Origin: Eledone cirrhosa
Lineage: Eukaryota
Length of the DNA stretch: 64,000 bases
Assembly: GCA_964016885.1 (NCBI GenBank)
Contig: OZ024743.1
Location: 144,956,001-145,020,000, forward strand
Reading direction: 5' to 3'
Within the stretch, counting starts at the first letter, position 1; every line of letters starts with the position of its first letter. The translations under genes were made by a program, and so were the position numbers. Below are positions 31,098 through 62,741 of the stretch, piece by piece. The notes under the pieces were generated by a model. It did no database searches. It had not been told where the DNA came from and saw only the letters and a program-made list of their open reading frames with translations.

Positions 31098-33063
31098 TCA
31101 GAAGCTCCCGCGTCTTGCGACGCATGAGGCAATCAAAGTGTTCCACCGCGTTCGGTCAGCAGCCAGTTGCACAGCGTCCCGCCGTTGTCTGTTTGTCGCT
31201 CGCAGGTCCCTCTCAACTTTTTTGCGCCAGTTCATTTTGGGTCGCCCTCTCCGTCTGCTTCCCTGTGGGTTCCATTTAAGTACTTGGTTCGCCAGTCTCT
31301 CCGGGGAAAATCTCAAAGCGTGCCCAAACCAGCCCAGGCGTCGCCTGCAGATGGCAGAAGAGACCAGCTGCTGGTTGGTGCGATTCCTGACTTCCTGGTT
31401 TGTTACATGATCACTCCATTTAATCCCCATCTTTCGCAGACACCTGGAATCGAATGCGTCCAACTTCTTCTCTTGGCTGGTCTTAAGGTGCCATGTTTCA
31501 CTTCCGCACAAGAGTGTGGACAGCACGTTGCTGTTGTAGAATCTCATCTTTATTTTGAGGGTGAACTTCCTGCTCTTCCAGATCTTGACAAGCTGGTTAA
31601 ATGCTGCTGAAGCCTTTCCCATTCTACATTGCAATTCACTGTCCATGGCGCCCCCATTGTTCCTAGGTAGGTGAAGTTGTCCACTATCTCCACCTCCCCC
31701 TGTTCAATGAAAACACTAGTTGGTGATGGGTGTGTCCCAGATAACATGCTTTTGGTCTTCTAAGCACTGATATTGAGACCTAAGCTTCCTGCTTCGACAT
31801 TGATATTGTTCATAATGATTTGCAGGTCAGCTGTGCTCTCTGCAAGTGCAACAATATCGTCCGCAAAGTCCAGGTCAGACAACTTTTGCTCTCCCACCTA
31901 AGATATACCCTGGTCTTTAGACGCTCTTCTTAGTACCCAGTCAATGGCTATGGCAAAGAGAATTGAGAGAGCGAGCAACCTTGACGCACACCAGTAACCA
32001 CCTCAAACCAGTCACTGTAACTATCCTTTGTCCGTATGCAGCACTTGGAGTTTGCGTAAATCTGTTTGATTGTCGAAATGACTTTCTGGGGCAGACCATA
32101 CTCATGCATGATGCTCCAGAGTGACGGCCGATGAATGCTATCGAATGCTTTGGAGAAATCGATGAAGCTGACGGCGAGGGGCCTCTGGAATTCGTTGTAC
32201 CTCTCAATGATGCGGCGTAACGTAAAGATCTGCTCTGCGCAGGAACGTTTTGGTCGGAACCCTGCCTGTTGTTCTCGCAGTTTCCGGTCTACCATGCCAC
32301 GTATGCGGTTCAGGATCATCAGACAATAGTCCTTCCCTGGTATGGAGAGAAGTGTCACTCCCCTCCAGTTGTCACAATCGGCAAGGTTGCCCTTCTTGGG
32401 GATACAGACAACCGCTCCGTTTCTCCAATCTTCTGGGACTTCACCCGTGTTCCACACAAGATTACATAAGTGGCCCATCCACTTGACCATGCTTTCGCCT
32501 CCTGACTTCAGCATTTCAGCAGAAATGCCATCCATACCTGGTGACTTGTTATTCTTAAGGGTTTTGATGGCCATGCGGACTTCCTTCTCGGTGAAGTCAT
32601 CAGTATTGATAGGCAACAAACTAGTAGGTTCCTTAGTGTCTGCTGGCACACGTGGCTCCGGTCGGTTGAGGGCTTCCTTGAAATGTTCAGCCCATCTGAC
32701 TAACTTTTCTTCACCCTTGAAAAGCAGCGTACCATCTTTCGCTTTCACCGGGCCTGAGTTAGCTCTAGAGCTGCCGGTGATTTTCTTGGCAATTTGGTAC
32801 ACAGAGCGCATGTCATTGCGTGCCGCAGCTGCTTCCGCCTCCTCTGCCTTACCCTCAATCCACATTCGTTTGTCCTTTTGGGCGCTGCGTTTCACCTCCT
32901 TGTCCTTATCAACATACTGCTGATATACCTTGATGGCCTCTGGGGTAGTGGCATGCCTCTGCTGGTGTAGGGCTTTCCTTTCATTAATCAGCTGCCAGGG
33001 TTCCTGTAGCCCAGGATTTCTTCCCCTGCAGCTTCCATGGTCTTCTTCATTTCCTCCCACCAA
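31098..33063 (-). pseudogene. RTE reverse transcriptase and C-terminal region, interrupted by frameshifts and stops
   Basis: Motifs KSPGMDG, IPKKG, NWRGVTLLS, QAGFRPKRSC, IDFSKAFDSI, GVRQGC, DLDFADDI (about 31855-31878), FTYLG, LGWFGH and RRRGRP. Confidence 0.88.
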
Positions 33064-34049
33064 TTGAGCGAGCCTGGTTCAGACTCCTCAAGGACAGCAA
33101 ATCTGTTCCTCAAAGCAGCCTCGAACTGTGCTTCCGTGTCACCGTTCTTCAGCTTGGTAGTGTCAAAACGCCTTGTAGTGAATGCTCTCTTCTTCTGCTT
33201 CCTCAGTCTGATTTTAAGTTTGGTAACAGACAGATAGTGGTCACTGCAGAGATCTGCGACCTGGTAGACTCGGACGCCCTGCAGGCAAGGAGCTCTCCAA
33301 CTTGGGCTAATCGCAATGTGGTCTATTTGCGTCTTGGTCCTGTGGTCGTTCGAAGCCCATGTGACCTTGTGGATGTTCTTGTGGTCAAATAGTGACGAGC
33401 CGATTTTCATATTGTTCATGGCACAGAACTGGACAAACCTGTCCCCGTTGTCCGTGCGATTTCCATAAGCATGGGGGCCAAGGACATGTTCAAAGACAAC
33501 CCTGCTTCCCCCGATCTGTGCGTTCATGTCTCCCATGATGATCAGGATGTCATGACGTGGGGTTTTGTTTACAACATCTTGTAGTTGCTGGTAGAAAGCG
33601 TCCTTGTCATCATCGTTATGTTCGTTGGTTGGAGCATAGCACTGAGCTATGGTGACCTTTGCGTGTGATGTGGTGAATCTTGCTGTCATTAAGCGTTCGT
33701 TGATAGGAGTCCACTCCTCAAGGGCACCACTGGCAGCCCTGTCCATGATGATTGCAACTCCATCTCGGTGGGTCCCGTTCTGACGGCCTGAGAACAGGAT
33801 GGTCTTGTTTTCATGGACAAACTTCCCAAAGTCAGTCCAGCGGACCTCGCTGAGGCCCAGGATGTTAATTTTGTAGGCCTCCATTTCTCCGATAACTTGC
33901 GGAAGTTTGGATGGTTGGTACATAGTTCTTATGTTCCAATATCCAATACGTGTGGTTGTTTTTGCAGACAGAATTCTGGTCCTCAGGATGTCGGCTTCCT
34001 CATTGAGACTTTCGCCGACACCCGTCATACAATCTCCGGTTAGAGACAA
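32988..34049 (-). pseudogene. RTE APE endonuclease portion
   Basis: Motifs WNIRT, GLSEVRW, QCYAPT, MGDMNA, NGDRF, QIDH and SDH. Confidence 0.88.
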
Positions 34050-34481
34050 CCGTTCTCCCGACTGCTTGGAGTTTAAATCTGATGTACTATGAATTGTTTT
34101 CGTAGCAGGAGAGTTTTTCCGGATGGCACATCCAAAATATAGGGACCAATAAATATTTCTAAGATAATATTATCTCTGGTTCTTTCTTTTCCCTTTTTCT
34201 TCCTCTCCTCCTCTCAATCTCATCTCCGTTTATCCTCCCGAGTTTGTTGCCTGAATATATACAACCTCGTCTCCATTACAGCGGCTTCCTAAACGCAACG
34301 AATGTTCATTTTCTGCAATGTCTCAAGAAAGCCACCACACTCTCTTATATATATTCCCCTCCCCGCAAAAAAATCTAATTGACTAAACCCATGCTTTTTC
34401 TCCAGAAATGTTTTTTATTTTTTCGTTCCTTCCTCTTCTCACTTTCTGTCTTTCTATTTAATTTTGTTTTTCTCATTCCAA

Positions 34482-34515
34482 CCTCTGATGAAGGACTGTC
34501 GCCCAAAACCTTAGG
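34482..34515 (+). ncRNA. Decayed minimal hammerhead at the end of a PLE remnant
   Basis: CCT-CTGATGA-aggactgtcgccc-aAAA-cc-TT^AGG, matching the common PLE pattern CTGATGAAGG...CCGAAACGTT. Confidence 0.5.
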
Positions 34516-34556
34516 ACTCTTATAGTAACTCTAATGCTCTGGTGGATGGAGGATGG

Positions 34557-35585
34557 ATCCACCAGAGCATTAGAGTTACTATAGACTACCCAAGTAGACA
34601 CCCCAACCATCGATTACCTGTACTAGACACAGAGCTCTGGTTAGATACAATTAACAACCAAAAACAAATCCTCCATTCCCATTATGCCAAACCCATGACT
34701 TCCAAACATCTGATCCACCGAAACTCGGCCATTTCGGACCATACCAAAATCAACATACTGATTGCGGATTTGGTACGGGTGATGAGAAATGTGTCCCGCA
34801 TGTGCAACCCCGAAGAACTAGAGAGACACATACAACACTTCATCCACCGTATGCAGTTCTCTGGCTACAATCAGAGAGATAGAATCAGAGTATATAAAGG
34901 AGCCAGAACCAAATGGGAAAAAATGGTAAATAATGACATAAATGGGACCTGCCCCTTGTATAGGAGCAAATTTTGGAATAGAATAGAAAGAACTAGGAAC
35001 AAGGCCAATAGAATAAACTCATGGTATGATAGCAATAAATACCAGAGTGTAATGTTCATCAATACAACCCCTAGAGGCGAACTAGCCTACAAATTTAGAA
35101 GGGCCCTAAAGAAACATAATCTCAATATTAAGATAGTAGAAAGACCTGGTACCTCCGTAAAAACACTTATTAGCAAGACATACCCGTTCCAAAGACCCTC
35201 ATGTATAGATAAGAAATGTATAACCTGTAAAATAAGCCCCCATATTAACTGTAAAACTAGAAATGTAGTATATAGCATAAGATGTACTGAAGGACAATGT
35301 AGAAACAAAAATATAGTGTACATAGGTGAGACAGCTCGTAGTATAGGGGAACGAATAAATGAACACTGGCGAGACCTCCAAGATAATAAAGAATCATCTG
35401 TGCTCTACCAACATGCTAAGATAGAACACAGGGGTAAATTAGAGAGCATAGAAATAAAAATAGAATCCACACACAAGAAAGACGCAATGTTTAGGCAAAT
35501 TACAGAGGCAGTAAGCATAAAAGAATTAAAACCAAAATTAAATAGAAAATATGAGTGGAACAGCAACATCACAACTTACAATTAA
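34557..35585 (+). CDS. PLE RT thumb/linker and GIY-YIG endonuclease (5'-truncated)
   Basis: Motifs DYPSRHPNHRLPVLDTELW, HYAKPM, FSGY, CIDKKCITC...C, VVYSIRC..C...YIGETARSIGERINEH, H...EH, RQITEAV and PKLNRKYEW. Confidence 0.88.
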   Translation: MHQSIRVTIDYPSRHPNHRLPVLDTELWLDTINNQKQILHSHYAKPMTSKHLIHRNSAISDHTKINILIADLVRVMRNVSRMCNPEELERHIQHFIHRMQFSGYNQRDRIRVYKGARTKWEKMVNNDINGTCPLYRSKFWNRIERTRNKANRINSWYDSNKYQSVMFINTTPRGELAYKFRRALKKHNLNIKIVERPGTSVKTLISKTYPFQRPSCIDKKCITCKISPHINCKTRNVVYSIRCTEGQCRNKNIVYIGETARSIGERINEHWRDLQDNKESSVLYQHAKIEHRGKLESIEIKIESTHKKDAMFRQITEAVSIKELKPKLNRKYEWNSNITTYN

Positions 35586-37264: not shown

Positions 37265-37311
<47 letters not shown>

Positions 37312-37314
<3 letters not shown>

Positions 37315-37550
37315 TTCTTTATTAGCCACAAGGGCGCAACAAGAAAAGGGGACAATACAAAGACATGCCGGGGATTTTACATACAGTCGTGTAAAAAAAT
37401 ATAAAATCAAACAATTTCAACAATTGAAATCCCCAATAGGGGGGAGGCGCCACAAATGGGTTGTTTAATACTCCGTCGATAGAACAACCCTCAACTCAAG
37501 GAGCGTGTTGTGCAAGTGCTCTTTTCTTCCTTTTGCTCTCTTCCTCAACC
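37312..37550 (-). mobile_element. 3'UTR fragment of a sibling Tx1-group LINE in an (ATCT)n/(TAGA)n tract
   Basis: Shares CTCCCCCCTATTGGGGA (17/17) and terminal CCCTTGTGG(C/T)TAATAAAGAAATC (22/23) with the 3'UTR of the element at 43421-49443. (TAGA)n lies on both sides. Confidence 0.8.
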
Positions 37551-37602
<52 letters not shown>

Positions 37603-38149
37603 GGATGGATGGATAGATTGATAAAAAGCGAGAGAGAGATACGAGTAGGTAAATATAGTGGATATGGTGTGAAATAAGTTAAAGAGAAAAGAAAGACGAA
37701 AAAGTATCTGATAGCACTTCAAACGATTTGCAATAAAGCGAAAAAGATTTTACCGTTTCTTACCTTATAAGTTTTTAAAAAAAAAACAAAGATATCATTT
37801 GCATATCAGTTTATTGTTTCAGTAGCATTTTTTAAAAAATTCGAATATTTTTTTTGCTCTTCTACTAAATAACCAGATTATTTAGTAGAAATCTTGTGTT
37901 GTTTTATTTTTAGTTTACATTACAATTGTTGTTCTTTAAGCCGTTATGATGTTAAGAGATAATTTCACGAGCTACATGAATCTACAGTCGTTATATTACA
38001 TGATTTACTATAAAGAAATATATGCTATATGTGCATGTATGTATGTATGCATGTACGTATGTATGTATATATGTATGTATGTACGTATGTATGCATATAT
38101 GTATGCACGTGTGTATGTATGTATATATGTATGTATGTATATATGTATG

Positions 38150-41228: not shown

Positions 41229-42843
41229 CCTTGAATCTCAGTCATTGATGTTGGTTAACTGGAAAGTCCGTTGGATTGAATATCAAGCCACTACCTGCAG
41301 CCTCAGATATTCAGGACGTATCGGAGGGTTCTTGCTGTTCCAAGCAAGCATGCCTTTTGAAGCGTTCCAAAAAGCGTGAAGGGGCCGATTTTCTTTAACC
41401 ATCCCTGGAAACTTTTGGAGATAGTCCCCAGTGCGCCTATGACAATCGGGATCACTTTGACTTCATGGCAGTTCCAGATCCTTTTCACCTCCCACTTTAG
41501 GTCCTGGTATCGGTTAATTTTCTCCCTCTCCTTCTCTTGCACTCTCGTGTCGAACGGGCAGGCCACATCCACAATCAGGCACGATCTTTTTTCTTTGTCC
41601 ACAACCACCAGGTCAGGTCTATTGTGTTCCAGTTTTTTGTCCGTCTGTATCCTAAAATCCCACAGCACCTTCACCTGATTGTTCTCCATCACCGCCTCTG
41701 GCCTATGCTCATACCATTTCTCAGAATGTGGTAGATTGTTTACTTTGCACAGGTGCCAGTGGATCACCCTGCCCATCACATCGTGTCTCCAGCCCTTATA
41801 GTGGGTCTGGGCTAGGTGTTTACACTCGGACACAATGTGAGCCACAGTCTCCTCTCTCTCTCCACAGATCCTGCACAGTGGGCTAGCCTCCTCCTTGTAG
41901 ATATGGTGCTTCAACCACTTCGTTTTGAGGGCCTGCTCCTGCGCAGCCATTAGCATTCCTTCTGTAGCCTTTTTGAGGTCTCCTCTTCTCAACCAGTTCC
42001 ATGTCTGTGGATCTCTAAATTCAGTTTTCTCAAAGAAGGTACTATGAAGGGATTTTCCCTTAAGGCTGCTCTTCCTCCTTGATGTTATTTCCTCCCCGGA
42101 CATCCCCTGGCCTACTGTCCCCTCCTTCAGTACAGTTCTGAGCATTGGCTCCTTACTATAGGTCACGTATTTGTATAGGTTGTTTTTCTCCATCTGAACA
42201 CAGTCCTCTATGCTGATAAGACCTCTTCCACCCTCAGATCTCCTTAGGTAGAGTCTATCGACATCACTCCTCTTTTGGAACATGTTGTAGATAGTCAATA
42301 GCTTCCTAGTCTTCCTATCCATTTCTTTTTGTTCAGCAACATTCCATCTCAGAATTCCCGCACTGTACCTAATAATAGACACAGCTCGGGAATTTACTGC
42401 GCTTATGGCATTTCTGCTGTTCAGATGTGACTTCAATACGCTCCTTACTCTCCGAATGTATTCAGTTCTTAACAATTCCTTCATTTTTTTGTTCTTTATG
42501 CCATCAGCCTCCAGAACGCCCAAATACTTGTATCCTTCCTCAGAGTCAATTTCCTTTATCATCTCACCTGTTGGTATCTGGATCCCGTTACTTCTGCTCA
42601 ACCTACTCCTCTTCATCACAATGACTCCACATTTACCAATACCAAACTGCATACATATATCACTGCTAAAAATACGGACAGTGTCAACAAGCACATCCAA
42701 CTCCTTCTCACTTTTCCCGAAGAGCTTAAGATCGTCCATGAAGAGGAGGTGATTGATGGTAAGCTCTCCCCTTCCCAACTTGTATCCTGCTCTCACTTTT
42801 CGCAGCATAATGGTCAAGGCCATCAGGGCAAGGACAAACAACA
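41229..42843 (-). mobile_element. 5'-truncated R4/Dong-like RLE non-LTR retrotransposon, copy 1, in (TAA)n
   Basis: Contains the RT C-terminal half, CCHC and PD-(D/E)xK endonuclease. A 74-nt 3'UTR runs directly into (AAT)n on the element strand, and ATT repeats lie on both sides. Confidence 0.9.
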
Positions 42844-42844
42844 A
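41303..42844 (-). CDS. Truncated RT-RLE polyprotein (513 codons open, no native start)
   Basis: Motifs HLLFMDDLKL, YKYLG, GGRGL, CRICGEREETVAHIVSEC, RHD, NRPDLVVVDK, IVDVACP, EREKINRYQDL and PIVIGALG. Confidence 0.9.
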   Translation of the reverse strand: MLFVLALMALTIMLRKVRAGYKLGRGELTINHLLFMDDLKLFGKSEKELDVLVDTVRIFSSDICMQFGIGKCGVIVMKRSRLSRSNGIQIPTGEMIKEIDSEEGYKYLGVLEADGIKNKKMKELLRTEYIRRVRSVLKSHLNSRNAISAVNSRAVSIIRYSAGILRWNVAEQKEMDRKTRKLLTIYNMFQKRSDVDRLYLRRSEGGRGLISIEDCVQMEKNNLYKYVTYSKEPMLRTVLKEGTVGQGMSGEEITSRRKSSLKGKSLHSTFFEKTEFRDPQTWNWLRRGDLKKATEGMLMAAQEQALKTKWLKHHIYKEEASPLCRICGEREETVAHIVSECKHLAQTHYKGWRHDVMGRVIHWHLCKVNNLPHSEKWYEHRPEAVMENNQVKVLWDFRIQTDKKLEHNRPDLVVVDKEKRSCLIVDVACPFDTRVQEKEREKINRYQDLKWEVKRIWNCHEVKVIPIVIGALGTISKSFQGWLKKIGPFTLFGTLQKACLLGTARTLRYVLNI

Positions 42845-42873: not shown

Positions 42874-43368
42874 CTTTGAGTCTCAGTCATTGATGTTAGT
42901 TAACTGGAAAGTTTGTTGAAATGAATATCAAGCCACTACCTGCAGCCTCAGATATTCAGGACGTATCGGAGGGTTCTTGCTGTTCCCAGCAAGCATGCCT
43001 TTTGAAGCGTTCCAAAAAGCGTGAAGGGGCCAATTTTCTTTAACCATCTCTGGAAACTTTTTGAGATAGTCCCTAGTGCGCCTATGACAATCGGGATCAC
43101 TTTGACTTCATGGCAGTTCCAAATCCTTTTTACCTCCCACTTTAAGTCCTGGTATCGGTTAATTTTCTCCCTCTCCTTCTCTTGCACTCTCGTGTCGAAT
43201 GGGCAGGCCACATCCACAATCAGGCACGATCTTTTTTCTTTGTCTACAACCACCAGGTCAGGTCTATTGTGTTCCAGTTTCTTGTCCGTCTGTATCCTAA
43301 AATCCCACAGCACCTTCACCTGATCGTTTTCTATCACCGACTCTGGCTTATGCTCATACCACTTCTCA
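42874..43368 (-). mobile_element. 5'-truncated R4/Dong-like element, copy 2 (RLE domain and 3'UTR only)
   Basis: Near-identical to the 3' end of copy 1. ORF 42948-43337 repeats the RLE peptide with few substitutions, and (ATT)n flanks both sides. Confidence 0.9.
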
Positions 43369-43420
<52 letters not shown>

Positions 43421-43633
43421 GAATGCCATGGTTGACGGAGGCTCGGCTCTGTAAGGTATAGTAATTTTTAACCGTTAAAACAATTGTAAATTGTTTAAAA
43501 CTTGAACCAAATTGTTGATAAAGACACCCTCCTCCTCGTGAGAGGGGTCTTTCTGTCCGTTATTTGGCCCTTCGGGGTTAAATAACCAGTTATTGGGGTT
43601 TTGTACCCAGAATTTCATTTTAAACAAAAAAAC

Positions 43634-45727
43634 ATGGCTACGAAAAAGAAATTTCGTACGTCACTCCCACTCATTCCGTCTTCTTCTTCCTCAATCATCA
43701 CTACAGCAGAGAGAAGATTGTCTCTCTCCCTCCCTTCTTTAAATGTGTCTCTCTCCCTCCCTTCTCTTTCGCAAGCGACGAAAGAAAAGAAAAGTCTCGT
43801 GCAAAGCGTGCAAGGTTTCTCCACGACGACGACGACAGCGACGAAACAGGTGTGCGGGAAATACGAAAACCCAGTTCATTCGTCTGACGTCAGGAATAAT
43901 AGCAGTAGCAGCCGTAATAACAACAGCAACAGTGACAATGAAAACAACAGTAGCAGCCGCAACAGCATCACCAGCAGCATAAACAACAACAGCATTAGCA
44001 GCAGCAACACCAACAACAACCACAGCAACAGCGGCGGAGGCAGTAGTCGTAGTACCTGCAGCAACAACAAAAGTACCAGCAGCTCTGACGACAACAACAA
44101 CAGCAGAGAAAAACCAATCTCATTTGCAGGTATTGCGAAAAACTTGGAAACAATCCTCATAACAAATGAGGAATTAGAGGAAGCGAAGAAGATGGTGACA
44201 AAGAACGGACACCGAGCAATCTGCAAGGCAGCGAAAAATTTTTTCGAAACCCAAGAGCACTGTACGGTCACGTACCGTACAGTAAGTACAAAATCCCGTA
44301 GGGTGGAAAGAGCCACAGAGGCCCAAATACAAAAAGCCTTGGGGTCTGTGTGGCAGAGGAAAACGCACATCACCCGAGGCAAAAAATACGCCACCGTAGA
44401 CGTACTTTTTGCCACACCCCAGGAGGCAAAGGCCCAATCAGTAGTGACCCTAAGGAGCGAGGAAATGGTGTTGGTGCCCTCCTACTGCGGGCAAAAAATT
44501 GTGAGGGTCAAACTGACCCACGTCCCCCCCGGAATGACCCCTTCTTGGCTGGCCGCGTCTGTCCTCGTCGGAATCGAGGACAAAACAACTGTACTGCAAG
44601 TACAGAAAAAAGTAAGAGAAGATTGGGTCGGCTCCTCCATTGAGATGCTAATCCAAACCAACCAGGAGTGCATCGAAGCTATCCCGGATGTGATAGACTT
44701 CGATAACGGCACTCAACTGCCCATAAGTGTTGAGGGCAAACGCCCGAAATGCTTTCGCTGTGGATCGAAGACTCACCTCAGGGCCTTCTGCAACGAGAAG
44801 ACCCTGAGAAAGGAGAAAACCCCCCTCCTTCCGAATCCGGCTCCACGGCTACCAGCAACAGGACAAGAGGCAACCAGGAACGATAGGTCCGTGGCACCCA
44901 TACCCACTCCACGGAAATCAAAGACAGCAGCAGCAGTGGAAATATTAACAACAACAGCAATACCAAATGCAGCTGCAACAGAGACTCCAGTGCAAACATC
45001 ACCAACAACAACAAGTGAAAGAGTGGAGCTGGTACCCCTCCCCGACCTTACAGAATCAGACATGGAGTGTGAGGTGGGAGAGGGATGGCAAAAGGTCGCA
45101 AGAAGGCACAAACGCAGAAGCAGCGCATCGTCGCCTTTGAAAAGGGAGGAAAGAAATGAGAAAAGGGTAAAGTCTACTGCAAAGAGACCCACAGCAGCAA
45201 CACCACCAACACCATCACCACCCACACCAGCACCACCATCACCACCGGCGACAACCCCACCGCCAACAACACCTTCAACACCACCACCACAAGCACCAAC
45301 ATCGCAAACACAACAACAAAACACACACACCCAGCAACAACGACAAGAAAATAGCAGAACCCCACCCCACCCCCAGAAAAACAAATGCACGGCAATAAAC
45401 ACACACAACAAGAAACTAATGACTTACATAATTGAACACACAGACATTTCACAACAGGACTACATAATACCAGCACCAATCAAAACGCCAACTAACATAA
45501 GACTGCTAAAAATAGCACAGAAACAATACACAAACATTAAAACGAAATTCCCCAACGCAGTTGGTGATTTCAGGGACCTAGGAGGAACCATCAATCGAAG
45601 AGTATATTCAGACATTCTCTTAGAAGAGCCGACGACCAGCCGAAGGGACGATTCAACGGTCCCTTCACCAGACGATCAAGTGAAAAGGGATGTAAAAACC
45701 ATCCCTCCTCTACCAAAAGTACGGTAA
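43634..45727 (+). CDS. Tx1/L1 ORF1p, gag-like nucleic-acid-binding protein (about 697 aa from ATG 43634)
   Basis: Open frame with a zinc knuckle CFRCGSKTHLRAFC (CX2CX4HX4C), an S/N-rich N-terminal low-complexity tract, a P/T-rich C-terminal tract and basic patches (RRHKRR). Confidence 0.88.
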   Translation: MATKKKFRTSLPLIPSSSSSIITTAERRLSLSLPSLNVSLSLPSLSQATKEKKSLVQSVQGFSTTTTTATKQVCGKYENPVHSSDVRNNSSSSRNNNSNSDNENNSSSRNSITSSINNNSISSSNTNNNHSNSGGGSSRSTCSNNKSTSSSDDNNNSREKPISFAGIAKNLETILITNEELEEAKKMVTKNGHRAICKAAKNFFETQEHCTVTYRTVSTKSRRVERATEAQIQKALGSVWQRKTHITRGKKYATVDVLFATPQEAKAQSVVTLRSEEMVLVPSYCGQKIVRVKLTHVPPGMTPSWLAASVLVGIEDKTTVLQVQKKVREDWVGSSIEMLIQTNQECIEAIPDVIDFDNGTQLPISVEGKRPKCFRCGSKTHLRAFCNEKTLRKEKTPLLPNPAPRLPATGQEATRNDRSVAPIPTPRKSKTAAAVEILTTTAIPNAAATETPVQTSPTTTSERVELVPLPDLTESDMECEVGEGWQKVARRHKRRSSASSPLKREERNEKRVKSTAKRPTAATPPTPSPPTPAPPSPPATTPPPTTPSTPPPQAPTSQTQQQNTHTQQQRQENSRTPPHPQKNKCTAINTHNKKLMTYIIEHTDISQQDYIIPAPIKTPTNIRLLKIAQKQYTNIKTKFPNAVGDFRDLGGTINRRVYSDILLEEPTTSRRDDSTVPSPDDQVKRDVKTIPPLPKVR

Positions 45728-45762
45728 GTGGTCTTTCCCATCTTTTCCACTCTATTTTAAAC

Positions 45763-48700
45763 ATGACCTCACTCAGAATAGGCAGCATAAATGCGCGTGG
45801 CTTGGGGTCATCATGGAAGCAGGGTCACCTGCTCAACGACCTCAGGTCACTAAACATAGATGTAGTGGCCATCAGCGAGACCAGAATCTCCGAAGCACGG
45901 GCCTTCGCACCGATCTTCGGCGGCTACGATGTGTACGCATCTCCCAGCCGTCCTGGATCGGGTGGAGGAGTTGCTGTGCTTTTTCGGAGAGGTTTGGATC
46001 TCGCCATACGGGCCATCTTCCTGGACCCAGAGGGTAAGCTGGTGGTGCTGGACGTGACCAGCGGAGACGGGCAAGCTTTCAGGCTAGTGGCCGTCTATGC
46101 CCCGACAGGAGCAGGGCGGCCTGATTTCTTCCGGCGTCTGGAGACCTTTCTTGGAACGTCCCGCTCTTTAGTGTTAGTGGGCGACTGGAACGGGATCTTA
46201 GATGCACGCTGGGACTGTGTGGGATTAGCGGATAGGGGTGGAGGGTGCAAGAGCCTCACCAACCTGCTCAGGCGTTTTGAACTGTCTGACAGGTACCGAT
46301 TGGATTTCCCGAATGTGCCAATGTGGACTTGGACAAACCGCATAGGGTCATCCAGATCATATCTAGATAGAGTATTTTGTAGGGAAATAGATAGGTCTAG
46401 CATACGCTGTCCACAATTCAAGATAGTCAGCTACACGGACCACAAATTCGTGATCTGTGTGCTTGACCTAGATAGGCTTCATAGACGAGGACCCGGCTAC
46501 TGGAAGCTAAACGCGTCCTTACCAGCGCGCAAGGCCTACAGAGACCGGATTAGCGAACTAGTTAAGCGGGCGTTGACGGGGGCCATCGTCAACAACAAGT
46601 GGTGGTTTGCTCTGAAAAGAGCGATTAGAATAGAATCGATTAGGTTTAGTAAGGCTTTAGCAATAGAGAAAAATAGAGCAGAGGGAGAACTAGTTAGAAA
46701 ATTAGACGAGGCGCTTAGCAAAGGCATTGCGACCGACGTGCTTGCGGCGAAATTGGCCCTTGACCAATTCTTCAATGCAAAGCACGAAGGCTGCGTTGTC
46801 AGAGCTAGGGTGCGTGCTCTCAGACACGAGGGGACGAAAGCCGTTCAATGGGCCCGAGTGGCGGAGGCGCGTCGTGGCAACAAAGCCACGATCCGGTCTT
46901 TGGTGGACCACGACGGGCGCATGCTACTCGATCCCGGGCAAATGTGTGAAGTTTTTCAGCGACACTTCGCTCAGCTGTTCGGGGGCAGCGGGGGGCCGGG
47001 TAGAGGGATGGACTTTAGTGTCTACCTCGACGGACTGCCGCGGCTCTCGGCCACTGAGGCGAAGTGTTGCGAAAAGCCGATAACAGCCGCTGAAGTAAGG
47101 GAGGCCATGACTGGCTGCACAAGGGATAAATCGCCTGGTTTGGATGGTCTGCCCTATGAACTTTACGTACAGATGCCAGACTTGTTCGGAGGCCTCTTGG
47201 CGGACGTCTACTGCAACTGGCAACAGAACGGGAGAATTCCCAGTTCTGTGAGCCGAGGAGCGGTGGCACTGCTGAGAAAGGATCCGAACAAGGGGGATAA
47301 CATAGAAAATTTCCGGCCCATAACTCTGCTAAACACAGAGTTTAAGATTTTGGCCAAGGTGCTAGCAAAGAGGTTGGCGCTTGTCGTTGGTGGTCTGGTG
47401 GGAGAGGCGCAGACATGCGCCATTCCCGACAGATCCATCCACGACAACCTCCACCTCATGCGATACATCGTAGAGAGGGTAGCTAGCGAACCTGGCACGG
47501 GTGGGTCCTTGATCAATTTAGATCAGTCGAAAGCTTTCGATAGGGTCGACCATCGTTACCTAGCGGCAGTCCTGAGGGCGGCTGGCTTTGGGCCCGTCTT
47601 CAGAGGCTGGATCGCTGCCATGCACAGCGACATCTGCTCTGTGGTGAGAGTGAACGGTCACCTGTCGGAACCGTTCAACATCATGCGCTCGGTCCGCCAA
47701 GGATGTCCCCTCTCGTCCCTCTTGTACGTATTGACTCTCGAGCCATTACTGCACAAACTGGAGACGTTGAGGGGGGTCCCGCGCGAACTAGGATGCGGAA
47801 GATCCGTATCAGCATATGCGGACGATGTCACCGTAGTGGTGTCGAACGCCAAACACATCGAGGCGATCGGCACTACACTAAGAGAATACGAAGCGGTGAC
47901 AGGAGCAATGATCAACCAGGAAAAGTCAGTGGGCCTGCAGCTCGGCACCTGGAGAGGCATGTCCATGCCGTCCAACAGCGTCGTCGGACGCTGGACGGAC
48001 GGACCGGTTAAATTGCTAGGGGTCTGGTTCGGTCCGGACCTCCAGACGGACAAAAACTGGGACGAGGTGACGAGCAGGGTGGCTTCTCTCACCCAGAAAT
48101 GGGCCGAGAGGAAGCTATCCCTGAAAGGTCGAGCTGAGGTGGCTAACGCGTACATCGCGTCCGTCATCTGCTACCGCCTGACCGTCGTACCTTGTCCTAA
48201 GCCTCGCCTGACTGTGCTGGAGCGTTTGCTCTTTCGCTTTTTGTGGAAGGGACGCGCTCCGATGGTCAGGCGGTCCATCTGTTGTCAACACCCGCTACGT
48301 GGAGGGCTGGGCATGCCGTGGCTGATGATGCGCAGGCACGCGCTCAGGCTACGACATCTCCACCTCTTCCTCGACGGTGATCAGGTGTGGTCGCCGTTTG
48401 CTAGACGCGTATTTCCCCAGCTCGTTTCCTTGACGGAGCTGCAGTCCTGGGTCAAGCGAAGACCGAGAGGGAGCGCCTGGAGACTGGAATGTCTTCAGGC
48501 GCTCACAGCCCTCGACCAATCGGGCAATGTGATCGGTGGAAACTCCACCTCGGCGTTCTATAGAGGATTAGTGGAGGGGAAGAGCGACGACGTACTTGGG
48601 GCAACTCTAGGCGTCGACGAAAATCAACTAGCCAATCTCTTCGGAAGAACTTTCGGGCCAGGGCCTATGGACAACTTCCAGAAATCTCTGGCCTGGCAGT

Positions 48701-49182
48701 GCTACCGAGGAGCCTTGCCAGTTCGGGATAAACTCTACAGGCATGGAGGTGCCGTCAGCCGGGCATGTCCGAGATGCGCGCAGGGCGACGAAACCGTCCT
48801 GCACGCACTCGTCCAGTGTCCGAAAATTGCTGACTTGTGGGTTTATGTCGAACACCTGCTGTCGCGTTTAGGACGGATCCAGCTATCATCTGAGTCTATC
48901 GTGAGGATTGCCCCGCCCTCCTCCTTTAGCCGGGAAGGGCAGGCAGTTTTTATCTGTCTGGTGGCCATGGCGAAAGAGATAGTATGGTGGACACGTTTGA
49001 AAGGGCTGAAGACGAGCACTTACCTCTTCGGTGATGCTCTGATTGACTTTTTCAAATTTCATTTGAAAAGGAAAATCAGAGTAGAGAAGGAAGTGCTCTC
49101 TTCCCAGCATTTTGTTGAAAGATGGGTGAGAGAAGCAAGAATGGCCCGAGTGAATGGGCCTACTCTGAGTATATATCTGTAA
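45763..49182 (+). CDS. Tx1/L1 ORF2p: apurinic-like endonuclease, reverse transcriptase and C-terminal CCHC zinc finger (1139 aa)
   Basis: APE motifs SINARG, ISET, VYAP, GDWN, SYLDR, TDH. RT motifs KSPGLDG, FRPITLLN, LDQSKAFDRVDH, VRQGCPLS, YADD, LLGV. Zinc finger CPRC...ETVLHALVQC. No stops or frameshifts. Confidence 0.96.
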   Translation: MTSLRIGSINARGLGSSWKQGHLLNDLRSLNIDVVAISETRISEARAFAPIFGGYDVYASPSRPGSGGGVAVLFRRGLDLAIRAIFLDPEGKLVVLDVTSGDGQAFRLVAVYAPTGAGRPDFFRRLETFLGTSRSLVLVGDWNGILDARWDCVGLADRGGGCKSLTNLLRRFELSDRYRLDFPNVPMWTWTNRIGSSRSYLDRVFCREIDRSSIRCPQFKIVSYTDHKFVICVLDLDRLHRRGPGYWKLNASLPARKAYRDRISELVKRALTGAIVNNKWWFALKRAIRIESIRFSKALAIEKNRAEGELVRKLDEALSKGIATDVLAAKLALDQFFNAKHEGCVVRARVRALRHEGTKAVQWARVAEARRGNKATIRSLVDHDGRMLLDPGQMCEVFQRHFAQLFGGSGGPGRGMDFSVYLDGLPRLSATEAKCCEKPITAAEVREAMTGCTRDKSPGLDGLPYELYVQMPDLFGGLLADVYCNWQQNGRIPSSVSRGAVALLRKDPNKGDNIENFRPITLLNTEFKILAKVLAKRLALVVGGLVGEAQTCAIPDRSIHDNLHLMRYIVERVASEPGTGGSLINLDQSKAFDRVDHRYLAAVLRAAGFGPVFRGWIAAMHSDICSVVRVNGHLSEPFNIMRSVRQGCPLSSLLYVLTLEPLLHKLETLRGVPRELGCGRSVSAYADDVTVVVSNAKHIEAIGTTLREYEAVTGAMINQEKSVGLQLGTWRGMSMPSNSVVGRWTDGPVKLLGVWFGPDLQTDKNWDEVTSRVASLTQKWAERKLSLKGRAEVANAYIASVICYRLTVVPCPKPRLTVLERLLFRFLWKGRAPMVRRSICCQHPLRGGLGMPWLMMRRHALRLRHLHLFLDGDQVWSPFARRVFPQLVSLTELQSWVKRRPRGSAWRLECLQALTALDQSGNVIGGNSTSAFYRGLVEGKSDDVLGATLGVDENQLANLFGRTFGPGPMDNFQKSLAWQCYRGALPVRDKLYRHGGAVSRACPRCAQGDETVLHALVQCPKIADLWVYVEHLLSRLGRIQLSSESIVRIAPPSSFSREGQAVFICLVAMAKEIVWWTRLKGLKTSTYLFGDALIDFFKFHLKRKIRVEKEVLSSQHFVERWVREARMARVNGPTLSIYL

Positions 49183-49441
49183 ATTAAAGGTGGAAAACTG
49201 GGAGAGGGCACTTGCCTTGGTGGTCAGGGTCATTGTGGCTTTTTACTGGGCTTTCACCACAAATGTCCCTCCGAAGTCTCCCCCCTATTGGGGAATTTTT
49301 CATTGTTATTTTCATTGTTATTTTTGTTACATCCTCTGTTTTTGATTTTTACACGCAGAAATGCCCATTTGTACCGTCCTGCATTGTCCTGCACTGTCCT
49401 TAATGTCTACTTTATGTAAACCCTTGTGGTTAATAAAGAAA

Positions 49442-49517
<76 letters not shown>

Positions 49518-59993: not shown

Positions 59994-62741
59994 TGCAACA
60001 TAGAGAGCAACTTCACACAACACCAGGAAGACCTAAAGAAAATGTTAGAGAGAAGATTTGGAGATACAAAATTTAAAACTTTGAACTCCAAATTACACCA
60101 GTTGAAACAACAACTCACAGCTACAACAGAAAGACTGAAATATAAGTCAACAGCACATAAACGACAAGTGCTAAATAGATTGTTTGCCAGAGATCCTAAA
60201 TCAGTTTATCGCAGCTTCGGTGGCAAAAGCTCAATCTCTGTAAATGACACCCCTTCAAAAGAACAGGTTGAGAGCTACTGGAGATCTGTATGGGAAACGG
60301 ATGATGGATTCAACAGACAAGCTAATTGGCTAAAAGAACTGGAACAGGACTACTGCCAACATGTCCAGACAAAACAATGACATAGATGGGTCAATACTGG
60401 AAACAGCTCTACAGAAAATGTCGAATAGGAAATCGCCAGGCCCAGACCTCATTACAGGATACTGGTTGAAGAATTTCACTTTCTATCGGCAAGATCTCAT
60501 ACGGCTGTTTACAGAAACCATTAAGGGCACACAAGAACTGCCCAGATGGTTATCAACTGCCTCTACTCTCCTCATTCCCAAAAATAGCCAAACGACCCTT
60601 GCTAAAAATTACCGCCCAATTGCCTGCCAAAACATCATGTATAAATTATATACTGGGTGCCTTAACCTGTTCTTACAGGATCACTGTGCTACCAACAACA
60701 TCATAACACCTGAGCAAGCTGGTGGAAAGAGGGAGGTGTGGGGTTGCATAGATCACCTACTAACTAACAAAATGATTCAGGAAAAAACAACAAAGAATCG
60801 CAGAAACATGACTGTCGTGTGGCTGGACTATCAAAAACCATTTGATAGTGTACCTCATGGGTGGATTGTTAAGGCTTTACAGTTAGCTAAAGTCCCACAA
60901 CCATTGGTAGCTGCTGTTGAACGCCTGACCAAGAACTGGTACACCAGTTTGATCCTTAGAGGTGAGAAGGAGCAGGTTAAGACTGATAAGATACATTACC
61001 AGAAGGGCATCTTTCAGGGTGATAGCTTGTCAGTGCTACTCTTCGTTCTCTCACTGAATCCACTATCTTACCTACTCAGGAAACAAGGTCGACAAAGAAG
61101 TGGGACCAGAAGTATCTCCCATCTTTTCTTTGTTGATGACCTGAAGTTGTATGGGCCAAATATCAATGACATCAAGAAACAATTGGACCTCATTACACAA
61201 TTTTCAACCGAGATCAAAATGAAATTTGGTGAGTCCAAGTGTGCATATTTGGCAGTAAAACGTGGAAGAGCTGTGCCCTCCTCTAGAAATCTAGAGATGA
61301 ACGGCCTGACAATACAACCTCTGCAGTCAGGTGACAACTACATATATCTTGGACAGGATGAGAATGTCAGATATGATGGACCCATAAATAAGGAGAGAAC
61401 CAGAACTGAATACCTCAGAAGAGTAAAGAAAATATGGTCATCAGAACTGTCAGCATACAACAAATACATTGCCCACAATACTTATGCTGTGCCAATTCTA
61501 ACGCCAACATTTGGCCTACTGAACTGGTCATTGCAAGAACTAAGTGAGATGGATGTTAGAACTCGAAAACTTCTCAGTGTTACTGGGAACTTTAACATCA
61601 ATGGTGATGTGGATAGGCTATACTTCTCACGCAAGGAAGGTGGCCGGGGTCTAAAATCAATATTAACAACATATGAGACCCGGATAGTGACACTGAAGCA
61701 ACACCTTCAACAGAGGAAAAAGGTTGGCAACCATCTTGCCCAGGTTTATGACCATGAAAAAAGAAATATCATTAGAATAGCGACTGATCTGGAGGAGAGA
61801 TATGGAATAAAGCCCGATATAAATCTCTCACCCAGAGAAATCGGAAGATCCTATTCAATGTTCAAACAAGAAAAAAAAATTGACCAATTTACAGAAAAAG
61901 TTGTGCATGGATACTTGAGGCGTAAAACACAGACCATAGAGGGGATAAACCACTCAAAAAGCCTGGCATGGAGTTCCGACAAGTTTATGACATCACACCT
62001 TGAGGGATATCTCTATGCAATACAGGAACAAGAACTCCCTACCAAATATCTGCTGCACAAAAGAGGAGGGCCAGCAGCTGACAATAAATGTAGGCTATGT
62101 AAAACAAAGATCGAGGATGTAAGCCACATTGTTGCCAGCTGCGAAAGAATGTCATCTCGCTACTACCTCCCCATGAGACACGATGGGATAGCTAGAACCA
62201 TCTGGAACGCACTTCGGAAAACAAAATCAACAACAAACGAGGAAGAATATATTGAGACAGATGGCACTAAGGAATACTGGTGGAACCTGAAAATAAAAAC
62301 TGCCACCAAATTAAAGCACAACCGGCCTGATATTGTAGTTTGGGACCACACATTGAAAACGTGTTCTGTTGTGGAGATCAGCTGCCCACTTGATGTAAAC
62401 GTTGTCAGAAAAATACAGGAGAAGGAGGACATCTACGGACCATTGATGAGGAGTTTACAAATCCAGTATCCAAGATACACCTTTAGCTTCATACCCATCA
62501 TTATTGGTGCTACGGGTTATATACCAACCCGCTTGGACCAAAGTATGACTGAACTTGGATTTGCGGACAAAAAGCGCAGCTCCCTAATTCATAGTCTACA
62601 AATGGCTGCGATAGCTGGCACCTTCAAAATTTGCGAAACATTCTTGCGATTCAAGGGATGACAATTTCTTTTCTTTTACAACCTTGCCACCAGGAAGGTG
62701 GCCGGTCAAAAAATATACTCAAAATTAAGAGAAAGAGAAAA
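59994..62741 (+). mobile_element. 5'-truncated RLE-type (R4/Dong-like) LINE of a second family, ending in a (TACA)n compound tract
   Basis: The upstream frame (to 60380: LNRLFARDPKSVY...YWRSVWE...WL) is joined by one frameshift to ORF 60361-62661. An 80-nt 3'UTR carries the hairpin GCCACC-AGGAA-GGTGGC and is followed by ACATACATAAT repeats. Confidence 0.88.
60361..62661 (+). pseudogene. RT-CCHC-RLE coding region (766 codons open, frameshift near 60375, 5' truncated)
   Basis: Motifs KSPGPD, YRPIAC, LDYQKPFDSVPH (the usual A is replaced by P), GIFQGDSLS, FVDDLKL, GGRGL, CRLC...HIVASC, RHD, NRPDIVVWD, VVEISCP and EKEDIY. Confidence 0.88.

Follow-up and report, generated by a model that had tools for sequence, protein, structure and literature searches.

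Two young lineages of a Tx1-like retrotransposon family in Eledone cirrhosa changed their insertion target without a lineage-specific change in the endonuclease

We analyzed a 64,000-nucleotide stretch of the Eledone cirrhosa genome (referred to as the window), in which a short reverse-strand fragment interrupts a TATC-type microsatellite and a complete retrotransposon of a second family occupies an (ATT)n array (Table 1). Genome-wide searches covered 3.0 Gb, in which the window lies on contig C4. The fragment sits between (ATAG)12.5 at 37265-37314 and (TAGA)18.5 at 37551-37623, and it begins precisely at the TAG that ends ORF2 in longer copies, the TA being common to the array. It is 97.9% identical to the last 240 bases of L092, a full-length copy with both ORFs open. 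A DNA search with the fragment gave 1,588 candidates, and all 40 matches that were scored out of these reached at least 98%. In longer copies ORF2 lies directly upstream of the fragment sequence, whereas a missing link to ORF2 would have refuted the original reading; the fragment is the 3'UTR of an autonomous Tx1-like family, here called B. This bears out the original prediction that the fragment and the complete element, family A, represent sibling autonomous families sharing 3' signals. The relatedness of the two UTRs is further confirmed by a local alignment score of 50, compared to a best score of 33 in 2,000 shuffles. Two blocks, the hairpin block CTCCCCCCTATTGGGGA and the terminal block CCCTTGTGGYTAATAAAGAAATC, had been described as the only conserved stretches between the fragment and the 3'UTR of A. 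Both are indeed present in the two copies and nowhere else in the window, but shorter matches exist between them. The start of family A is equally well defined, since 19 of the 20 relatives fetched begin at the same base after (ATT)n.

Table 1. Features of families A and B in the window
Feature	Position	Strand	Remark
5'-truncated family B copy, ORF2 stop codon and whole 3'UTR	37312..37552	-	241 bp
(TATC)n array on the 3' side of the B copy	37265..37311	-	
(TATC)n array on the 5' side of the B copy	37553..37623	-	
Hairpin in the B fragment, 5-bp stem and 6-base loop	37430..37446	-	local folding
Terminal block of the B fragment, no poly(A) at the junction	37312..37334	-	
AATAAA within the B terminal block	37318-37323	-	6 bases before the element end
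Complete, intact family A element within an (ATT)n array	43421..49443	+	
Family A ORF1 with putative CCHC knuckle	43634..45727	+	motif visible in the translated sequence
Family A ORF2: APE endonuclease, reverse transcriptase, zf-RVT	45763..49182	+	
Hairpin, family A copy	49278..49294	+	
Family A terminal block, then (ATT)n	49421..49443	+	
(ATT)n array, 5' flank of A	43369..43420	+	

The window contains further elements. A frameshifted APE and reverse transcriptase element at 31098-34169(-), which our searches did not connect to A or B, is presumably RTE-like, and a 356-amino-acid open frame at 34515-35585(+), which has no Pfam match, presumably resembles the GIY-YIG region of Penelope-type elements. 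R2-like non-LTR copies at 41303-42844(-), 42874-43368(-) and 60334-62661(+) are bounded by ATT arrays, and element A adjoins one of them, within an ATT array. These copies encode a reverse transcriptase and zf-RVT, and the C terminus of the copy at 41303-42844(-) matches R2 proteins, not an APE domain; we take them to be Dong/R4 elements. It seems that (ATT)n is used by two clades that are unrelated to each other. According to the part of the source available, Dong/R4 elements insert in (TAA)n (PMC3812793), the same microsatellite as that of family A, although the clade differs.

The ORF2 proteins of A and B are 67% identical overall, the value being lower for the endonuclease (61%) and higher for the reverse transcriptase (75%), and the ORF1 proteins are about 33% identical over their alignable core. 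PF03372, PF00078 and PF13966 were detected in A and in B (L092), the zf-RVT of B falling under the curated cut-off. The closest matches of the ORF2 protein were to human L1 ORF2p (profile E 2e-224; Foldseek 3e-52, TM about 0.6), far above the matches to R2 in both profile and fold, and the proteins of A and B are of the L1-group type rather than of R2, RTE or CR1 type. As in the Tx1 clade, both families have two ORFs, with an N-terminal APE, a reverse transcriptase and a C-terminal zinc motif in ORF2, and insert sequence-specifically with target-site duplications. An ORF1 with a CCHC zinc knuckle is a further feature of this clade. The corresponding pattern C-X2-C-X4-H-X4-C is visible in A and B, the Pfam zf-CCHC match being weak in B (E 0.048) and absent in A, whose ORF1 matched no Pfam family at E 0.001. 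On this anatomy, we assume that A and B belong to Tx1; the name was absent from 68 homologues, from the cluster members read and from the atlas entries. A metagenome scan (query P0007) found no relative. The possibility of a non-autonomous SINE-like element was ruled out, as copies are 5' truncated at varied points and run into ORF2.

We then compared the APE recognition loops between the families, a check that had been suggested. The loops aligning with the human L1 hairpin, TNRIGSSRS in A and VNRSGTSRS in B, are of equal length with conservative differences, and another TATC family has RNHSGQSRS; the loop is not a clean diagnostic of target. The role of this loop in the human L1 endonuclease is described in PMC1950540, available in part. 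Elsewhere in ORF2, around residue 922 (L092), a long segment behind the thumb region is absent, as it is in relatives of about 40% identity; the segment is present in human L1 and in more distant relatives.

The 3' signals are conserved well beyond the window. Local folding of the hairpin gave -8.0 kcal/mol for B and -9.4 kcal/mol for A, and a compensatory C-G to T-A double change in the stem was found in one family (9/9 ends) and in L087. The terminal block has 11,816 exact matches in the genome and its reversed control none; in all, three disjoint end patterns gave 11,816, 7,523 and 2,245 exact matches (controls 0, 5 and 0). With about 21,600 element ends, these families account for part of the interrupted (ATT)n and (GATA)n arrays of the genome. 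Hairpin and terminal block are common to several families. No poly(A) tail was seen at the listed junctions, a short A run standing behind 1 of the 100 listed B ends.

Genome-wide, family B has 2,033 ends and family A 3,623. When flanks were counted by eye, the first 100 listed B ends were followed by TATCT in 84 cases, by AATAT or AATAA in 9 and by other variants in 7, with no ATTATT among them, and the first 100 listed A-type ends were all followed by ATT-like sequence. Furthermore, 344 ends fell into 8 UTR clusters with two or more members and 65 singletons. Six clusters were TATC type, the largest including AATAT copies deliberately enriched for, and two were ATT type; none of the 8 mixed ATT and TATC, so that the association between 3'UTR family and flanking repeat, proposed as a check, was found. 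Two apparent ATT-flanked B copies proved to be AATATTATT copies. The identity of the families and their specific targets, ATTATT for A and TATCT for B, can be regarded as nearly certain. In a tree of the ORF2 C terminus, the grouping of the ATT families has a value of 0.93 and that of the TATC families a value of only 0.62, and this tree does not tell the direction of the old ATT/TATC split.

A few copies depart from these patterns. In UTR cluster 4, a TATC-side family, 3 of 9 copies (L067, L070 and L072) have TATAT or TATTT flanks, and this family is possibly a further relaxed or switched lineage. L211, L194, L026 and L389 include single A copies with ATTCTTCTT or ATTAGCC behind the element end, and B-like copies with (TC)n at this place. 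The (TC)n or (TTC)n target of Kibi and Koshi was considered and not matched: targets are ATTATT, TATCT and AATAT, with only occasional TC-repeat flanks.

The idea that related families partition microsatellites thus stood as far as family-specific flanks are concerned, but the microsatellite as such is not the target. What is recognized is a motif of 5 to 6 bases. For B this is Y^TATCT, accompanied by target-site duplications and used outside arrays too: several insertion sites have no array, and L013 interrupts the reading frame of another element with an 11-base duplication. In truncated copies, duplications begin at the first base behind the element. With both junctions in view, they were called for 46/66 TATCT/AATCT ends and 58/103 AAT ends, and their start was the first flank base in 43/46 and 52/58, respectively, the remainder being ambiguous repeats. 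AAT duplications are 8 to 21 bases long. A pyrimidine precedes the duplication at 24/27 unique TATCT/AATCT sites and 50/51 unique AAT sites.

These junctions also bear on the terminal ATC of the fragment, which is in register with the surrounding array as described and had been proposed to pair with the nicked target and prime reverse transcription. At the target, ATC was found upstream of the duplication at only 3/51 AAT and 11/27 TATCT/AATCT sites, and the duplication starts behind the terminal C, which places ATC on the wrong side of the junction. In addition, 27 of the 100 listed B ends have A as their last base, and in other TATC families this base is A, T or G. Because ATC is rare upstream of the duplication and the last base varies, ATC is not the priming contact; the primer matches the sequence behind the element end.

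A switch of target was found inside family B. Genome-wide, AATAT stands behind 94 B ends, where the DNA is AT-rich and for the most part not repetitive. These ends are not a random sample of family B. Two lineages, L1 and L2, about 99% identical to other B copies, insert at Y^AATAT. Lineage L1 was defined by T4934 (SNP positions are counted in the element of L092). The genome has 79 copies with A5299, all of which were read; 34 also carried T4934, and all 34 had AAT flanks, with A at +4 in 32 and T at +5 in 32. The other 45 comprised older copies, most of them at TATCT, together with 5 young ones at TATCT and 14 young ones at AAT, of which 11 did not have the length needed for typing. When all loci were taken together, lineage L1 was followed by AAT in 37/37 copies; the 23 other young B copies had TATCT (18), AATCT (2) or AATAT (3). 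Lineage L2, defined through a second search (25 matches), has 8 members including L240, 7 with AATAT and 1 with TATCT. The lineages occupy separate parts of the tree and differ in divergence (median about 0.57% in lineage L2 vs 0.20% in lineage L1, p 0.001). Since copies of one master are not independent, the evidence consists of two lineages and not of 45 events. The switch from TATCT to AATAT is clearer and younger than the A/B split. Two markers were discarded. A5299 had seemed specific to the AATAT lineage (42/47 vs 0/30), but genome-wide it is also carried by older copies and by the 5 young ones at TATCT. Similarly, a GTTT insertion in the UTR had seemed specific to AATAT copies of lineage L2 but is also present in the TATCT copy L450.

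AATAT is two changes away from TATCT, yet it follows 94 B ends compared to 8 genome-wide for AATCT, which has a single mismatch; in the flanking DNA, AATAT occurs 1,868 times and AATCT 592 times (about a third). A stepwise path through AATCT was rejected, as there are only these 8 ends and the 4 placed on the tree are scattered. Insertion showed an extended preference for AATATTA (18/64 vs an 11% background), and AATAT copies are spread over most large contigs. No separate AATAT family was found among 166 clade-wide ends with an AATAT flank, 100 of them listed. Similarly, no second switch was seen in the 2,245-copy GC-ended ATT family, where 1 of 100 listed ends was followed by AATATT.

Protein sequences were compared among 27 long young copies. 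The 8 lineage L1 copies that span the endonuclease have no change in common there, and three of the lineage (L220, L223 and L227) carry the majority protein over residues 1 to 240. Changes exclusive to lineage L1 are D932Y in ORF2 and Q492R in ORF1. Lineage L2 shares P17S, K267R, G323D, G480S, A1052S and M858I, each of which also occurs in a TATCT copy; P17S, the only shared endonuclease change among the two L2 copies that span this domain, is present in the TATCT copy L450 as well. No amino-acid change is common to the two lineages. Two B lineages have changed target without a lineage-specific endonuclease change.

We propose that site choice is set by pairing of the nick with RNA read through from the flank of the parent copy, the target being inherited from that flank, and we give this reading, which rests on sequence comparison, a probability of about 0.5. 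Poly(A) cleavage falls a short distance past AATAAA. Because AATAAA lies just 6 bases before the element end, the transcript would run into the flank and end some 5 to 25 bases into it. ORF2 would bind the hairpin and the terminal block, thereby fixing the first copied base, and a tolerant endonuclease would nick AT-rich DNA beside a bottom-strand purine. A nick would be extended only if its primer can pair with about 5 to 7 bases of the read-through tail, and a full-length copy landing at another motif would found a lineage carrying that motif. In favor of this proposal, flanks follow family, two young B lineages use Y^AATAT without an endonuclease change of their own and without any amino-acid change in common, AATAT far outnumbers the closer motif AATCT behind B ends, and the preference extends to AATATTA. 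It is weakened by the fact that both reached the same motif, which is unexpected under free inheritance unless 3' ends were exchanged, and by the finding of no AATCT lineage and no other lineage with a private motif. Tail-derived extra bases were not clearly seen at any junction. If the proposal is true, the TATCT to AATAT lineages catch the inheritance process within 1% divergence. Its extension to the whole clade, with specificity inherited through RNA by a flank guide of 5 to 7 bases and no protein mutation, is more tentative, and we would rate it somewhat below even odds. The ATT/TATC split may have begun in the same way; as the A and B endonucleases are only 61% identical, this old split may also be enzymatic.

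The main rival to the tail model, by our grading, is a switch in the protein outside the endonuclease, in which D932Y (lineage L1) and M858I (lineage L2), both behind the reverse transcriptase, would have shifted insertion to AATAT, leaving the A/B split to the endonuclease. All 37 copies of lineage L1 have D932Y, as follows from the way the lineage was defined, whereas the TATCT copies examined lack it, and M858I is carried by L240, L436, L437 and L266. However, two different substitutions would have had to converge on one motif, and residue 932 is D, N, E or A in different relatives and is placed in a loop by the structural model. There are also exceptions in both directions: L438 combines M858I with a TATCT flank, and L247 and the single duplicated insertion L179/L180 are flanked by AATAT with neither substitution. 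These exceptions are less telling because recombinant copies (L266, L226 and L436) exist and can explain them; L438, the only TATCT copy with M858I, may be one, and L247 and L179/L180 could be others. On balance we consider a protein switch unlikely. A good deal less probable is mobilization in trans, with the RNAs of both lineages inserted by the protein of another element that prefers AATAT. The hairpin and terminal block common to the families would allow it, and AATATT is one change away from ATTATT. Yet among the 100 listed of the 166 clade-wide AATAT-flanked ends, those outside B were nearly all ATT-family elements followed by AATATT, mostly AATATTATT, a survey of end patterns that a helper with an unrelated 3' end would escape. 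The complete lack of ATTATT behind the 100 listed B ends and the uninterrupted ORF2 of the lineage L1 copies L226 and L227 also argue against it, and the higher divergence of lineage L2 argues against its having been moved by the lineage L1 protein.

A degenerate site of the endonuclease alone, Y^WATMT, would cover both TATCT and AATAT, in agreement with the pyrimidine at -1 in 50/51 and 24/27 sites, and the lineage pattern would then reflect the chromatin open when each master was active. Mixed forms are rare although such sites are abundant (AATCT at 8 ends genome-wide, TATAT at 1 of 100 listed), none of the 37 lineage L1 copies is at TATCT, and AATAT copies are not confined to a few contigs; we regard this as very improbable. 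Finally, many 3' flanks are short repeats and might be tails made by the element rather than pre-existing targets. This is hardly credible, as truncated copies have these bases a second time, duplicated at their 5' junction, and as L013 lies in another element's frame with no array.

Pairing of a read-through tail has precedents. In R1Bm, target sequence read through at the RNA 3' end is said to pair with the primer and to aid insertion. In the available parts of the respective papers, pairing of the read-through flank raises insertion of R2Ol (PMC6530143), avian R2 requires a paired tail of 4 bases (PMC13580325), and pairing between tail and primer is proposed for SART1 (PMC7265360). R2Ol and avian R2 resemble A and B in that, by these accounts, poly(A) is not needed at the junction. 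As far as these sources go, the protein fixes the site in R1Bm and R2 and pairing adds efficiency or precision, whereas in the model for B pairing would select the site and be heritable. The excerpt available on human L1 describes a 'snap-velcro' mode in which pairing of primer and tail over 4 to 10 bases shapes site choice (PMC3649969). Human L1 resembles B in the pyrimidine before the duplication, and its ORF2p is the closest solved structure; its tail, on the same partial basis, is poly(A), identical in every copy and unable to drift, in contrast to A and B, which have no poly(A) at the junction.

The usual view, in the passages available, is that the endonuclease determines targeting (PMC4494074, PMC7265360). 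Kibi, Koshi and crocodilian Tx1 families are reported to target the microsatellites (TC)n, (TTC)n, (TTCC)n and (TTTC)n (PMC4494074, PMC3812793). Like A and B, these elements have an APE endonuclease and use different repeat units among related families, and the occurrence of A and B in different repeats is a further case of known Tx1 behavior; A and B differ from what is described for Kibi and Koshi in their targets, (ATT)n, (TATC)n and the non-repeat AATAT. In the accessible portions of the literature covered, including PMC12503042 and PMC13282606, no ATT, TATC or AATAT target is reported for Tx1, nor a natural change of target at the lineage level, be it within a 99%-identical family or while the endonuclease stayed unchanged. 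This coverage comprised listings, abstracts and passages, and both families may already be catalogued, e.g., in Repbase.

Near-identical lineages with different targets represent a natural experiment on target change, in which a tail swap (TATCTATC vs AATATTA) and the two point mutations would suffice to tell the explanations apart. Should the tail be what matters, target choice would be heritable outside the coding sequence, a single step could create a new specificity, and changing a few RNA bases could be enough to retarget an APE-type element. Should the point mutations be responsible instead, they would mark a specificity determinant outside the endonuclease.

Several local arrangements of copies were also observed. 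Family A forms head-to-tail arrays with a spacing of about 6 kb (C1:55423669-55449634 and C1:56169680-56181806; L110 and L111), in which the copies are joined by short (ATT)n, and new A copies are often found at the 3' junction of older relatives. Within family B, four lineage L1 copies at C1:35.25-36.18 Mb (L160, L161, L220 and the full-length L226) have different 5' ends and lie at the same position of a repeat unit of roughly 60 bases starting AATATTAACC, which could reflect re-insertion favored by long tail pairing, or local duplication. In L226 and L319, both full-length lineage L1 copies, the duplication is separated from the first base of the element by the same 9 extra bases, AGCTATCTA, which may be upstream flank inherited from a master.
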